Positions 20,945-29,107 of a DNA stretch of 64,000 nucleotides are shown piece after piece. The stretch is from a bacterium. Its GTDB lineage: Bacteria > DRYD01. The translations under genes were made by a program, and so were the position numbers. Position 1 is the stretch's first letter. Every line of letters starts with the position of its first letter. The stretch is taken from the NCBI GenBank assembly GCA_039630415.1, contig JBCNVB010000011.1, positions 987 through 64,986 on the forward strand. Reading direction: 5' to 3'. Under the pieces are notes generated by a model, which saw only the letters and a program-made list of their open reading frames with translations, ran no database searches and was not told the DNA's origin.

Positions 20945-21229
20945 ATGGCGTATAGACCTTGTAAATTTAGGCATTCCCAGCTAGGAATATTCCAATGCGA
21001 AAGGCATATATACCAGCATACTAGTCAAGAGCAGTACGATGAGTTATACCATTTTTGTTTACAAAATGTACCAGATAAATTCTGCCCGTATATAGACTTC
21101 GGTTTTGATATGTCTCAGGATCCTCCACGTATAAATATAAATTGTACGCATCCTTACTTTGGTGGGCCCTTAAAGGCTATAGGTGATTGTCCTAACTGTC
21201 CATTTCCAGAGGGAGAATCTCTAGCTTAG
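20945..21229 (+). CDS. Small Cys/His-rich protein of unknown function
   Basis: 94 aa with 7 Cys (positions 6, 18, 38, 47, 67, 82, 85, including CPNC) and 5 His. Strong SD. The next gene begins 5 nt after its stop. Confidence 0.5.
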   Translation: MAYRPCKFRHSQLGIFQCERHIYQHTSQEQYDELYHFCLQNVPDKFCPYIDFGFDMSQDPPRININCTHPYFGGPLKAIGDCPNCPFPEGESLA

Positions 21230-21234
21230 TAATT

Positions 21235-27700: not shown

Positions 27701-29107
27701 CTATCTTTGTCTAATGATGTGGATTCTACAATATATAAAACCTACGTAGATGAAATTCTTTCTTCAGGAACCATAGTTTTACATTTTGATAAACTACAAA
27801 TAGATGAGTTTAAAGATTTTATATACTTCTTTAAAAATCGAAGTAGTATACAGAACTTGAGTTTTCAAAGAATTGATTTTGTTGATAAAATTCAGGTATT
27901 TATGTACTTTGTACTACAGGGTTATAATTATAGTGTAAAGATTACGCCGAAGTTCAATTTTAGGGATAATTCCTATTATCTAGACTTTATTAGAATAACA
28001 GTTAGTGAAATTTATCAAAAAATATGTGATATAGAGATAAATTATCCTAAGATTACCTTAAGACAGGTTTGGATTTATGCTTTACCTTCTTTTATTAGCA
28101 ACTTCAGAGGTAATATTACAGCATTATTGTCTTTTGATGATTATCAATTTTTTGTCAAATTTGAAAATTTACAAACTGAATTGTTATCAAACAAGGTGGA
28201 AATTGATGGTGATTTGATTTTATCTAAGAATGGCTTTGTACCACCTTTTGTTAAAATTAACTCTTCTCCCGTGAAAATAGGGTATAATGGCGAAATCGTT
28301 TCAATCGTTTTTGATGTAAATGAGATAAGCACTATAAGTTTTAAATATAAGGGTAGAATAAGGGGTAGTTTTGTTATACCTTTGAAGGATATTTACTTTG
28401 GTAAAACTTTCAAGTATATTCAAATTTCTGGGAATCTCCAAATGTATAAGGGTATTTTGAATTATAACCCTAGAAAGCTTAATAATCCTATATCTGGATA
28501 CTTAAAATTGAATCTTAACATGATTTTTAACAGAGTTAGATTCAAGAATAACATTATGGATATAGTGTTTGGTGGAAATATAAGATATTATAATGGTTAC
28601 ATTAACGGAGAACTTACATCTACTAAGGGATTTATAAGTTTTATAGATGGAATTTACAGAGTGATTCATGCTAACTTGAACTTTATAAATGATCCAAAAG
28701 GTGAATTATATGTTCTTTTACAAAAAATGTCTTCTTCTCCCTTTGATTACAGAGTAAAGATTATCAAAGGTAATATAAAGGATTTCAATCTCGCTGATTT
28801 TGGAATGAAGGATAGATTATCCTATGGGTTAGATGATGCTGGTTTAAGCTTGCAAACTTTTTCATTGTTTGATATACTTTTTATATCTTATCAAGGGTAT
28901 AACATTTATAGAGAAATTTTTCCAAATGTTTTTATTAGTTATTTCGGCGTTTACGGGGAAGATAGATTTAGTAAACTTGGTTATAAGTGGTACTATTCAA
29001 TTGATTGGATAGTATCAAGATTTAAATTGGGCGCTATATCTGTAAACTTCAAAAGCTACAGTAATGGTAGAAATAGTATAGGTTTCATTTTTGTAAGGGG
29101 ATTTTAA
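24707..29107 (+). CDS. Giant N-terminally anchored beta-rich protein, TamB/AsmA-like (tentative)
   Basis: 1466 aa with a single N-terminal hydrophobic anchor and N/Y/F/I-rich beta-strand-like periodicity throughout. The C-terminal part (GELTSTKGFISFIDGIYRVIHANLNFINDPKGELYVLL...YRVKIIKGNIKDFNL) resembles the DUF490 pattern of TamB. The start overlaps the upstream stop (TAATG). Confidence 0.45.
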   Translation: MIRLFFLSYFIFFLFLCHFSIGFKGKYQDWLEYQFVNKKLFLKLYVDRMLYSSYYSSQQKIHDQKPAIWSYPTFYRYINNALRGYISGNPIISLYVRFVMKNKIYIYVNFDLKDKDSYEDFSKYITDTNLYAEIYLDKFYNLDKAYFELSGKYISMSGMADKISLQTQIVAKLNYFSHSQVIIKGLSLNAYISSYPCFNATYTVHIHEILHRFENLTIILGNVAISNSNELFGLFFLRGLIKHIQIKTNNTDFIKLHGIKFYTFRSSFEIEVKYLSYVNYLMIDNTRMKFDLFYRQNNFFSLFNFLKIQTYKFFGGITPDNFLSSLNRYFGKYLYKINPNTRVLGIVNLLEYYLRTKEVNDFYIGVNVGKGEVLLFWKTIIVLFSKQRIDYFDGYNFFYTNKIVNQFYEVVYFGFNEFFIFNHQRFTNMLVYSSRLLNVIFKWNQQKICLYFSNNKNKVLLTRTSENFSDLYLVWCSIYDLSQLIDLLKEFLGIDLSRGYNLWGNELKLLSLVKYNQKFIMAKVIWNSILSSAFLNLDSATLNLPNIDSIFSSILKGLKGFIDYRKDKIFFYNGLIVGFFRNLFFYLDSDLDQIYNLYRGFNVSNIRNTNKLLRFIEYLYKYWMGKLNLTLYYNKQNWIWINGENILGCVYKVSFRSLKVSKGLKSPSIDLVVVLNNMLLNVKYFGKISVNTSGCFVWNKFGVNYFITVYDGLIKDLRVNIYKEGKTVAYIYNSLHDTFFLKLDFNELDLYGITNFLRGVKGKIKLCFKNDLLYIYLEDLVFNLDLRLYALEGIRLGLNIEGDIIFDVKSKNISYSNIFVRFQNSEFNDIGTVFILYKSDKMLPKKLYARVFMNHRAFELINLTSWGYVNLKNPDGFTSIELSLADQYLNLDYLVKFDANELFLKSYRVLDLIFQISGRIKCDWSTVLNLRNLDDWSNLYSKTDFEMDFKANYYIKAGDIYKKIIQNLYLHLNHNKFFADGQIQISFTELQKILNLSILSLSNDVDSTIYKTYVDEILSSGTIVLHFDKLQIDEFKDFIYFFKNRSSIQNLSFQRIDFVDKIQVFMYFVLQGYNYSVKITPKFNFRDNSYYLDFIRITVSEIYQKICDIEINYPKITLRQVWIYALPSFISNFRGNITALLSFDDYQFFVKFENLQTELLSNKVEIDGDLILSKNGFVPPFVKINSSPVKIGYNGEIVSIVFDVNEISTISFKYKGRIRGSFVIPLKDIYFGKTFKYIQISGNLQMYKGILNYNPRKLNNPISGYLKLNLNMIFNRVRFKNNIMDIVFGGNIRYYNGYINGELTSTKGFISFIDGIYRVIHANLNFINDPKGELYVLLQKMSSSPFDYRVKIIKGNIKDFNLADFGMKDRLSYGLDDAGLSLQTFSLFDILFISYQGYNIYREIFPNVFISYFGVYGEDRFSKLGYKWYYSIDWIVSRFKLGAISVNFKSYSNGRNSIGFIFVRGF

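Follow-up and report, generated by a model that had tools for sequence, protein, structure and literature searches.

Six closely spaced genes of Ca. Calescibacterium, a small hot-spring bacterium with a 1.4-Mb metagenome-assembled genome, very probably represent a genus-specific run in which four or more functionally unrelated units were gathered by gene-order scrambling in a small and dense genome. Only one part of this run, a pair encoding a DUF3084 membrane protein and a YqgF/RuvX-like paralogue, stays together in other bacteria, from cyanobacteria to Margulisiibacteriota. The genes, here named o1 to o6, were analyzed in a 64,000-nt stretch of DNA (the window), to which all positions refer. 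The G+C content at the locus is 31%.

The six genes and their packing

All six ORFs are located on the plus strand between positions 20945 and 29107 (Table 1). The intergenic gaps from o1 to o6 are 5, 25, 6, 13, and -1 nt, the last junction being a TAATG overlap. An earlier note on this DNA had described six tightly spaced same-strand ORFs, and its coordinates, gaps, and overlap were all verified. It had also reported a strong Shine-Dalgarno sequence and a TATAAT box preceding o1. Both are present, and o1 is the only one of the six genes with a strong Shine-Dalgarno sequence, but because there is no convincing -35 element in this 31% G+C DNA, the TATAAT box is not distinguishable from chance. 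A promoter scan of positions 20000 to 30000 did not list the box. In the same region, neither promoter-like sites (56 versus 50.7 in shuffled sequences) nor terminator-like sites (3 versus 3.0) were enriched.

Table 1. Positions of the analyzed genes, signals, and motifs in the window
Feature	Position	Strand	Basis or remark
TATAAT-like -10 box 5' of o1	20885-20890	+	Sequence; without convincing -35
Shine-Dalgarno AGGAGG	20931-20936	+	8 nt 5' of the o1 ATG
o1, 94-aa Cys/His-rich protein	20945-21229	+	Seven Cys conserved in relatives
o2, 379-aa barrel-sandwich-hybrid/KOW-type protein	21235-22374	+	Homologues and gene context elsewhere
o3, 322-aa DUF3084 membrane protein	22400-23368	+	Pfam PF11283, E 1e-22, 80.3 bits (cut-off 25)
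o4, 149-aa YqgF/RuvX-like RNase H-fold paralogue	23375-23824	+	Pfam RuvX, E 4.8e-10
o5, 289-aa class I SAM methyltransferase, COG2521	23838-24707	+	Homologue of T. kodakarensis TK2045
o5 SAM motif I	24252-24278	+	Motif location
o5 DPPR motif	24465-24476	+	HDPPR at aa 209-213, aligned to DPPR of 8VYD
o6, 1466-aa beta-rich protein with hydrophobic N terminus	24707-29107	+	Profile-profile match to TamB
o6 TamB (DUF490)-like region	28343-28990 (about aa 1213-1428)	+	hhalign

Crude longest-ORF gene calling gave a median gap of 7 nt between same-strand neighbors genome-wide, with 72% of the gaps not exceeding 25 nt. Moreover, 44 runs of at least six genes with every gap of 25 nt or less were found in the genome. 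We conclude that o1 to o6 are packed no tighter than expected by chance in this genome, in which tight spacing is the norm. The co-directional run around the block extends from position 13607 (alpha-2-macroglobulin) to position 31592 (comEA-like) and includes flgG upstream of o1; rpsB follows o6. Cotranscription of o1 to o6 is probable; a shared promoter and some coregulation are possible.

Conservation of the gene order

The complete o1 to o6 order was found only within the genus Calescibacterium, in which all six genes are adjacent and the o2 to o5 order is retained wherever the contigs permit (genomes G001 to G006). In the sister genus (G008), o1 and o2 are located on separate long contigs (C17 and C43) and o3 to o5 on contig C45, where o5 is followed by fliI/fliJ and not by o6. 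Both genera of this family keep o3, o4, and o5 side by side. The three genes are separated from one another in the sister family (G010), where each has different neighbors; flanking genes were seen for o3, for o4 (downstream), and for o5, and some of these separations are less certain because the assembly is fragmented into 280 contigs. Furthermore, in 75 loci outside Calescibacteriota, none of the genes o1, o2, o5, and o6 was detected within 6 kb of the DUF3084 gene. The gene-neighborhood comparison that had been proposed for the six-gene set thereby showed that its synteny is lost in both the sister genus and the sister family.

A conserved pair of DUF3084 and YqgF-like genes

Profile searches confirmed the gene-by-gene family descriptions of the earlier note, namely, DUF3084, RuvX, and class I SAM methyltransferase (Table 1). 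The o3 protein has two N-terminal transmembrane helices flanking a conserved basic loop, which are followed by a long helix and an alpha/beta C-terminal domain. Its AF2 model (pLDDT 76.8; residues 120 to 322 mostly 83 to 92; helices at 2 to 34 and 46 to 71) revealed no PDB relative by Foldseek, the best match (E 0.07) being a weak likeness to small ribosomal-protein chains.

The o4 protein carries the family signature of the RNase H-like fold, as RuvX/YqgF does, together with conserved acidic residues, of which D10, E90, D124, and D125 were invariant in seven sequences from at least four lineages. It scored above the cut-off of the Pfam RuvX model (PF03652; 40.3 bits, cut-off 29.2) but below that of the TIGR00250 equivalog (27.3 bits, cut-off 43.25), and it belongs to a distinct subfamily that co-occurs with DUF3084. 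A canonical ruvX is located at about 49618 to 50009 in the window (79.5 bits). We therefore rejected o4 as the housekeeping RuvX, since it misses the equivalog cut-off and a better RuvX match is present elsewhere in the genome. A PDB sequence search with o4 gave no match at E ≤ 0.1.

Among 110 genomes of distant families, 12 contained DUF3084 and nine a strong o4-like match (E < 1e-12); eight of these nine also carried DUF3084. The hypergeometric probability of this co-occurrence was 1e-8, or 7e-6 when the three genomes used for building the profile were omitted, values that overstate the case because genomes of kin are not independent. Gene order was analyzed by a pattern scan of genome contigs built on the DUF3084 alignment, which was chosen because the o4-like alignment was too variable. 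This yielded 77 DUF3084 loci from named genomes (Nostoc, Prochlorococcus, Cyanobium, Symploca, Margulisiibacteriota, and Calescibacteriota), with matches mostly from cyanobacteria and many from close kin. An o4-like gene was directly downstream of the DUF3084 gene in 51 loci and within 2.7 kb on the same strand in 11 more. The o3-o4 pair is the sole part of the six-gene run that stays together in other bacteria.

In several phyla, lptB, lptFG, and lpx genes are located immediately upstream of the DUF3084 pair. The Calescibacterium genome carries LPS and Bam genes, and o3-o4 is not in an lpt, lpx, or bam locus: lptB and lptFG are on contig C5, lpxA and fabZ on C18, and bamA on C21. The synteny of COG0816 and COG4372 in an outer-membrane locus of diderm Firmicutes was flagged previously as uncharacterized (Antunes et al. 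2016, eLife, PMC5007114); in these bacteria, DUF3084, COG0816, TamB-BamA-Skp, and flagellar genes are found within one large locus (PMC5007114). We found nothing on COG4372 with COG0816 in the literature beyond this study. The Calescibacterium pair corresponds to the diderm Firmicutes pair in its two families, their order, and close spacing (6 nt here), but it is detached from all lpt/lpx genes and has unrelated flanking genes. The mixture of envelope-type and nuclease-fold proteins, which the earlier note had regarded as unusual, is real for o3-o4; it is, however, the property of a widely conserved pair that had already been reported (PMC5007114).

The usual position of the pair behind lptB/lptFG or lipid A genes elsewhere suggests that o3-o4 most likely contributes to outer-membrane or LPS biogenesis at the inner membrane. 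The wide conservation of the pair, and its persistence even when separated from lpt genes, argue for direct cooperation of the two proteins; o4 would be the cytoplasmic partner of the membrane protein o3 and competent for catalysis.

The o2 protein and the Cys-rich protein o1

The o2 protein had no Pfam or NCBIfam match. Its homologues number more than 7,900, and those in other phyla are 43 to 55% identical. In four of six distant genomes, the o2 homologue was encoded beside or near a PF13941 gene, and in three of these genomes, DUF6754 and other membrane-protein genes were found alongside. Based on this context, o2 is a predicted partner subunit of a widespread uncharacterized membrane module around a GlmL/MutL-like (PF13941) ASKHA-fold ATPase. 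No paper on this module, on DUF6754, or on PF13941 was found in the literature. In its protein family, o2 matches the barrel-sandwich partner that is encoded by or near the ATPase in other phyla, but its gene context differs: instead of lying beside PF13941 and DUF6754 or other transmembrane-protein genes, o2 is split from the ATPase gene (contig C12) and the membrane subunit genes (C18 and C8) of its own genome. The o2 product would be the soluble barrel-sandwich partner, with the ATPase and the membrane subunits encoded elsewhere in the genome.

For the small protein o1, again with no Pfam or NCBIfam match, only nine matches at E ≤ 1e-3 were detected among 1.84 billion representatives, and they retained the Cys pattern. 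The o1 protein was 90 to 97% identical between family members and 73% identical to its sister-family counterpart. The o1 family is nearly restricted to the phylum, and o1 is unlinked to o2 outside the genus, the two genes being on different contigs in G007 to G010. The o1 product, with its seven conserved Cys residues, is probably metal binding. We also asked whether o1 might be the GlmL-like module's small protein but rejected this, since its linkage to o2 is limited to the genus and homologues beyond the phylum are almost lacking.

A homologue of an archaeal 16S rRNA methyltransferase

TK2045 of Thermococcus kodakarensis (COG2521/arCOG00054) is the archaeal 16S rRNA N4,N4-dimethylcytidine (m4,2C918) synthase, and its DPP(R) motif holds the catalytic Asp, D205 (PMC11551388). 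Orthologues are rarer in bacteria, where 2.6% of genomes have one, often without the N-terminal domain (PMC11551388). The o5 protein aligned to TK2045 (PDB 8VYD) with an E value of 1.1e-66 over both domains (query residues 34 to 284 on chain residues 24 to 279), with 48% identity overall and 57% in the catalytic domain. Like TK2045, o5 is from a thermophilic host, contains the N-terminal and Rossmann domains, and has retained DPPR together with its catalytic Asp. It differs in its bacterial host, in which it retains the N-terminal domain often missing from bacterial orthologues. An o5 homologue was detected in only one of the 110 distant genomes, and that genome lacked DUF3084 and a strong o4-like match.

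By homology, o5 is a putative 16S rRNA methyltransferase of the TK2045 type, which would act on the assembled 30S subunit and convert a cytidine of helix 31 to N4,N4-dimethylcytidine. In Thermococcus, this mark aids growth at temperature extremes (PMC11551388). A search for 16S motifs revealed no recognizable 16S rRNA gene in the assembly.

A divergent TamB candidate

The earlier note had called o6 TamB-like, and profile-profile comparison supports this call even though Pfam is silent: there was no Pfam or NCBIfam match for the whole protein, four pieces searched at E ≤ 10 were likewise blank, and a six-frame search of the genome with PF04357 gave nothing at E ≤ 10. Using hhalign, o6 matched a profile of 24 TamB C-terminal sequences at 95.6% (E 1.1e-8, 207 columns), while reversed and shuffled controls reached at most 0.5%. 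With full-length alignments, the match dropped to 60% (E 9e-5). The Pfam-positive TamB of the sister family was also matched (BLASTP, 4e-5; hhalign, 82.7%). Residues 901 to 1466 gave a poor AF2 model from a four-sequence alignment (pLDDT 49), mostly of long beta-hairpins; its second Foldseek match was TamAB (9xdc_B; probability 0.93, but E 0.018), which we regard as a hint only.

The protein resembles TamB (PF04357/DUF490) in size, has a hydrophobic N terminus as a putative anchor, and is rich in beta structure; profile-profile comparison shows its C-terminal region to be collinear with DUF490. Moreover, its conserved C terminus, ...SYSNGRNxIGxxFV[KR]GF, ends with Phe, and collected TamB homologues likewise have an aromatic terminal residue. 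In contrast to TamB, o6 is too divergent for the Pfam model and its gene is not beside bamA, which is on another contig (C21). It also evolves very fast: the N-terminal 1,000 residues are only 22 to 23% identical within the genus, and only three homologues were found in 5.8 billion proteins. We read o6 as a very divergent TamB; a search of 10 genomes of the family gave no second TamB match, which leaves o6 as the sole TamB candidate there. By homology, the protein would be a bridge anchored in the inner membrane that cooperates with BamA to assemble the outer membrane and transport lipids.

Alternative explanations for the gene run

The earlier note had treated the genes as one coupled set that could not be assigned to any described system. 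Such a dedicated system, acting jointly on the envelope, would be consistent with the very tight gaps, the lone strong Shine-Dalgarno sequence at the head, the lack of an internal terminator-like site, and the order held in all genus members examined. This explanation is nevertheless very unlikely: the order is confined to the genus and is broken in both the sister genus and the sister family, close spacing is the norm throughout the genome, and o1, o2, o5, and o6 are absent beside DUF3084 in the 75 other loci. Furthermore, o5 belongs to a characterized and unrelated family, being closely homologous to an rRNA methyltransferase specific for ribosomes, and the conserved partners of o2 are encoded on other contigs. 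A narrower idea, that o4 and o5 are a small-subunit rRNA maturation pair, in which the o4 nuclease processes pre-16S rRNA and o5 methylates the same rRNA, was rejected as highly improbable. E. coli YqgF has been reported to process pre-16S rRNA. Both parent families are linked to 16S rRNA (for o5, PMC11551388), and the two genes are neighbors in either genus of the family. However, the o4-like subfamily co-occurs with and follows DUF3084, not o5; o4 and o5 are apart in the sister family; the genome has a separate canonical ruvX; and o4-like genes have so far not been seen beside COG2521 genes in unrelated lineages.

It is also unlikely, though to a lesser degree, that o3-o4 and o6 are coupled as a partial envelope operon, either left over from an ancestral outer-membrane supercluster of diderm Terrabacteria or by secondary regrouping, with o1, o2, and o5 as passengers. 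The single diderm Firmicutes locus harboring DUF3084, COG0816, TamB-BamA-Skp, and flagellar genes argues for it, as do flgG upstream of the block here, the sister-genus fliI/fliJ genes behind the block, and the presence of LPS and Bam genes in the genome. Against it, o6 is located away from o3-o5 in the sister genus, in the distant genomes checked, the TamB gene is either on another contig than the DUF3084 gene or 23 kb away from it, and bamA, lptB, lptFG, and lpx genes are dispersed over contigs C5, C18, and C21. Similarly, we consider doubtful a reading in which the DUF3084 and YqgF-like pair shares one promoter with TamB and this placement reflects a real link of an LPS-exporter accessory unit to the TamB bridge for lipids and outer-membrane proteins, with the YqgF-like protein as an active metal-dependent hydrolase on the cytoplasmic face that does not act on nucleic acids. 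A partial functional theme may nonetheless exist, since o3, o4, o6, and perhaps o2 concern the envelope, and o3-o4-o5 are adjacent in both genera. The preferred explanation remains the genus-specific gathering of unrelated units.

Implications

As a six-gene system, o1 to o6 are without significance; they are a juxtaposition. Their interest lies in the individual units. The DUF3084 and YqgF-like pair had been named a priority outer-membrane target in 2016, and its conservation is now traced from Prochlorococcus and Nostoc to Margulisiibacteriota and Calescibacteriota. The o6 protein illustrates how far a TamB may diverge and still be recognizable, a point relevant to surveys in which TamB is scored as absent. 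Finally, the only known m4,2C synthase has, in o5, a full-length homologue from a bacterial thermophile, and Calescibacteriota would be a good place for testing whether this rRNA mark supports bacterial growth at high temperature.

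Arrangement of the six genes

The six same-strand ORFs (o1 to o6) are present exactly as the earlier note had described them, with junctions of 5, 25, 6, 13, and -1 nt, AGGAGG 8 nt ahead of the o1 start, and a single TATAAT 55 nt upstream of o1. Promoter-like and terminator-like sites were no commoner in the region than in shuffled sequence. The window represents contig 3 of a metagenome-assembled genome (G000; 1.4 Mb, 89% complete). Among named bacteria, the closest relatives of this genome are Candidatus Calescibacterium, a candidate phylum from hot springs. The genes belong to a longer codirectional run (alpha-2-macroglobulin, pilin-like gene, der, flgG, the six genes, rpsB, CofE-like gene, comEA). 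According to a crude longest-ORF gene call, the median gap between same-strand neighbors genome-wide is 7 nt (≤25 nt in 72%), and 44 runs of at least six genes have all gaps ≤25 nt. Since short same-strand gaps are found genome-wide, the tight packing of the six genes is not meaningful in this genome. We infer that they are cotranscribed.

Coordinates of the features discussed (contigs of G000 unless another genome or locus is named)
Feature	Location	Position	Strand	Remark
o1	window	20945-21229	+	94 aa
o2	window	21235-22374	+	379 aa
o3	window	22400-23368	+	DUF3084
o4	window	23375-23824	+	YqgF/RuvX-like
o5	window	23838-24707	+	methyltransferase
o6	window	24707-29107	+	1,466 aa, TamB-like
o6, N-terminal 1,000 aa	window	24707-27700	+	
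flgG	window	20077-20850		
Canonical ruvX	window	49618-50009	+	directly after rpsM (49228-49599)
A9 run in ruvX	window	49647-49655		
o2 module gene	C12	42978-44786		
o2 module gene	C18	126513-128765		
o2 module gene	C8	54352-55089		
o2 module, other phylum	L012	5991-13051		
o2 module, other phylum	L016	9459-15325		
o1 copy	G009, C1	2933-3214		
o1 copy	G009, C16	21868-22149		

Conservation of gene order

Within the genus (G001 to G006), the order o2-o3-o4-o5 is retained wherever contigs permit. The six genes and rpsB are all adjacent in G003 and G004, and in G004 the upstream neighbor of the block is already different. In the sister genus (G007 to G009), o1 and o2 are each located on other contigs; because the contigs carrying them in G008 are long (30 to 72 kb), their separation there is not an assembly break. 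In the same three genomes o3-o4-o5 are still adjacent, followed by fliI and fliJ, and the o6 homologue is located elsewhere or was not detected. In G010, from the sister family, the neighbors of o3, of o4, and of o5 are all different. At 75 DUF3084 loci from other phyla, o1, o2, o5, and o6 are all absent within 6 kb. With the order broken in the sister genus and the sister family, the view of the six genes as one system is not supported. What stood from the suggested check of neighborhood conservation is o3-o4, the only conserved functional pair among the six.

The o3-o4 pair

A family match at 1e-22 upholds the description of o3 as DUF3084-like. In its AF2 model (pLDDT 76.8), a conserved basic loop lies between two N-terminal helices; the model also has a long helix and a confident alpha/beta domain, for which a search with the model returned no PDB relative. 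o4 scores above the Pfam RuvX threshold and below the RuvX equivalog threshold, and a better RuvX gene is present elsewhere in the window. D10, E90, D124, and D125 are kept in an o4-like alignment from at least four lineages. The profile built from this alignment had strong matches in 9 of 110 distant genomes; 8 of these 9 carry DUF3084, which is carried by 12 of the 110. There, DUF3084 directly follows lptB, lptFG, and lptA-like genes or lpxB-lpxA-fabZ-lpxC. At 77 named DUF3084 loci (Nostoc, Anabaena, Prochlorococcus, Cyanobium, Symploca, Margulisiibacteriota, Calescibacteriota), DUF3084 is immediately followed by an o4-like gene in 51, and in 11 more such a gene lies within 2.7 kb on the same strand.

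The pair is not new; it is already in the literature, as uncharacterized. Antunes et al. (2016; PMC5007114) described synteny of COG0816 and COG4372 inside an outer membrane locus in all diderm Firmicutes and named both genes priority targets; our literature search found no later paper on the pair. In G000, lptB, lptFG, lpxA, fabZ, and bamA are present but all on other contigs.

A divergent TamB candidate

o6 has no Pfam match, and only three homologues were found among 5.8 billion proteins, all from very close relatives and at least one being the G004 copy. The C terminus of o6 (...SYSNGRNxIGxxFV[KR]GF) is conserved, with Phe as the last residue. PF04357 had no match in any of 10 genomes of the family searched; the sister family does have matches, as do most of the diderm phyla sampled. 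The C-terminal 480 residues of the o6 family, aligned to a profile of 24 TamB C-terminal sequences, gave 95.6% probability (E value, 1.1e-8), versus ≤0.5% for reversed or shuffled controls. Full-length alignments matched the same place more weakly (60%; E value, 9e-5), and the sister-family TamB is collinear with o6 (BLASTP, 4e-5; hhalign, 82.7%). The AF2 model of o6 is of poor quality. These profile comparisons make it quite probable that o6 is a very divergent TamB. Between species of the genus, its N-terminal 1,000 aa are 22 to 23% identical (o2, 76 to 81%), marking an unusually fast-evolving envelope protein.

The remaining genes o5, o1, and o2

Residues 34 to 284 of o5 match PDB 8VYD (E value, 1.1e-66; 57% identity in the catalytic domain, 48% overall), which is TK2045 of Thermococcus kodakarensis. 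As shown genetically and in vitro, this enzyme converts C918, in helix 31 of 16S rRNA, to N4,N4-dimethylcytidine; it accepts only assembled ribosomes and needs Asp205 in its DPPR motif, and cells that have lost it grow less well at temperature extremes (PMC11551388). HDPPR is kept in o5 (aa 209 to 213), and, in contrast to many bacterial TK2045 orthologues, o5 retains the N-terminal domain. It was found in just 1 of 110 genomes of other families. A search of the 31 contigs for three conserved 16S rRNA motifs, with a few mismatches allowed in each, found no match, so the rRNA operon is absent from the assembly.

o1 had just nine matches among 1.84 billion representative proteins. All seven cysteines are kept in the closest full-length relative (P0124), identity within the family is 90 to 97% versus 38 to 80% for flanking genes, and the neighbors differ genus by genus. 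o1 is probably a metal-binding protein and may alternatively have a redox role. G009 has two copies, a rhodanese-like gene is near o1 in G004 and G009, and in G009 o1 also closely follows a gene whose small hydrophobic product is NuoK-like as judged by eye.

o2 has >7,900 homologues, 43 to 55% identical, in groups that include WOR-3, Poribacteria, and Hydrothermae. Homologues give weak matches to lipoyl and RnfC_N barrel-sandwich domains, which support the barrel-type description (lipoyl/hybrid-barrel-like) given to o2 earlier. In 4 of 6 distant genomes, o2 adjoins or is near a PF13941 (GlmL/MutL-like) ASKHA-fold ATPase gene, in 3 of these 4 alongside DUF6754 and other membrane-protein genes. 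The literature search found no paper on an o2-PF13941-DUF6754 module. The widespread cluster comprises the ATPase, an o2-type barrel-sandwich protein, DUF6754, and two or three additional membrane proteins. Its genes lie together in other phyla and are spread across four contigs in G000, with the o2 partner genes on contigs 12, 18, and 8.

Canonical ruvX and gene order in the lineage

A frame change at an A9 run interrupts canonical ruvX, with MNILGIDWGKKK in one reading frame and KKIGLALAN... in the following one. In a genome search, one TAA was found inside the canonical RuvX match in G003, G005, and G006 and none in G001 and the sister genus. The frame change reflects either an assembly error in the homopolymer or slippage-dependent expression. 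The envelope genes lptB, lptFG, lpxA/fabZ, bamA, tamB-like, and DUF3084, clustered in other diderm lineages, are spread over at least four contigs in G000. Flagellar genes are also scattered, flgG standing alone. Gene order appears heavily scrambled in this lineage.
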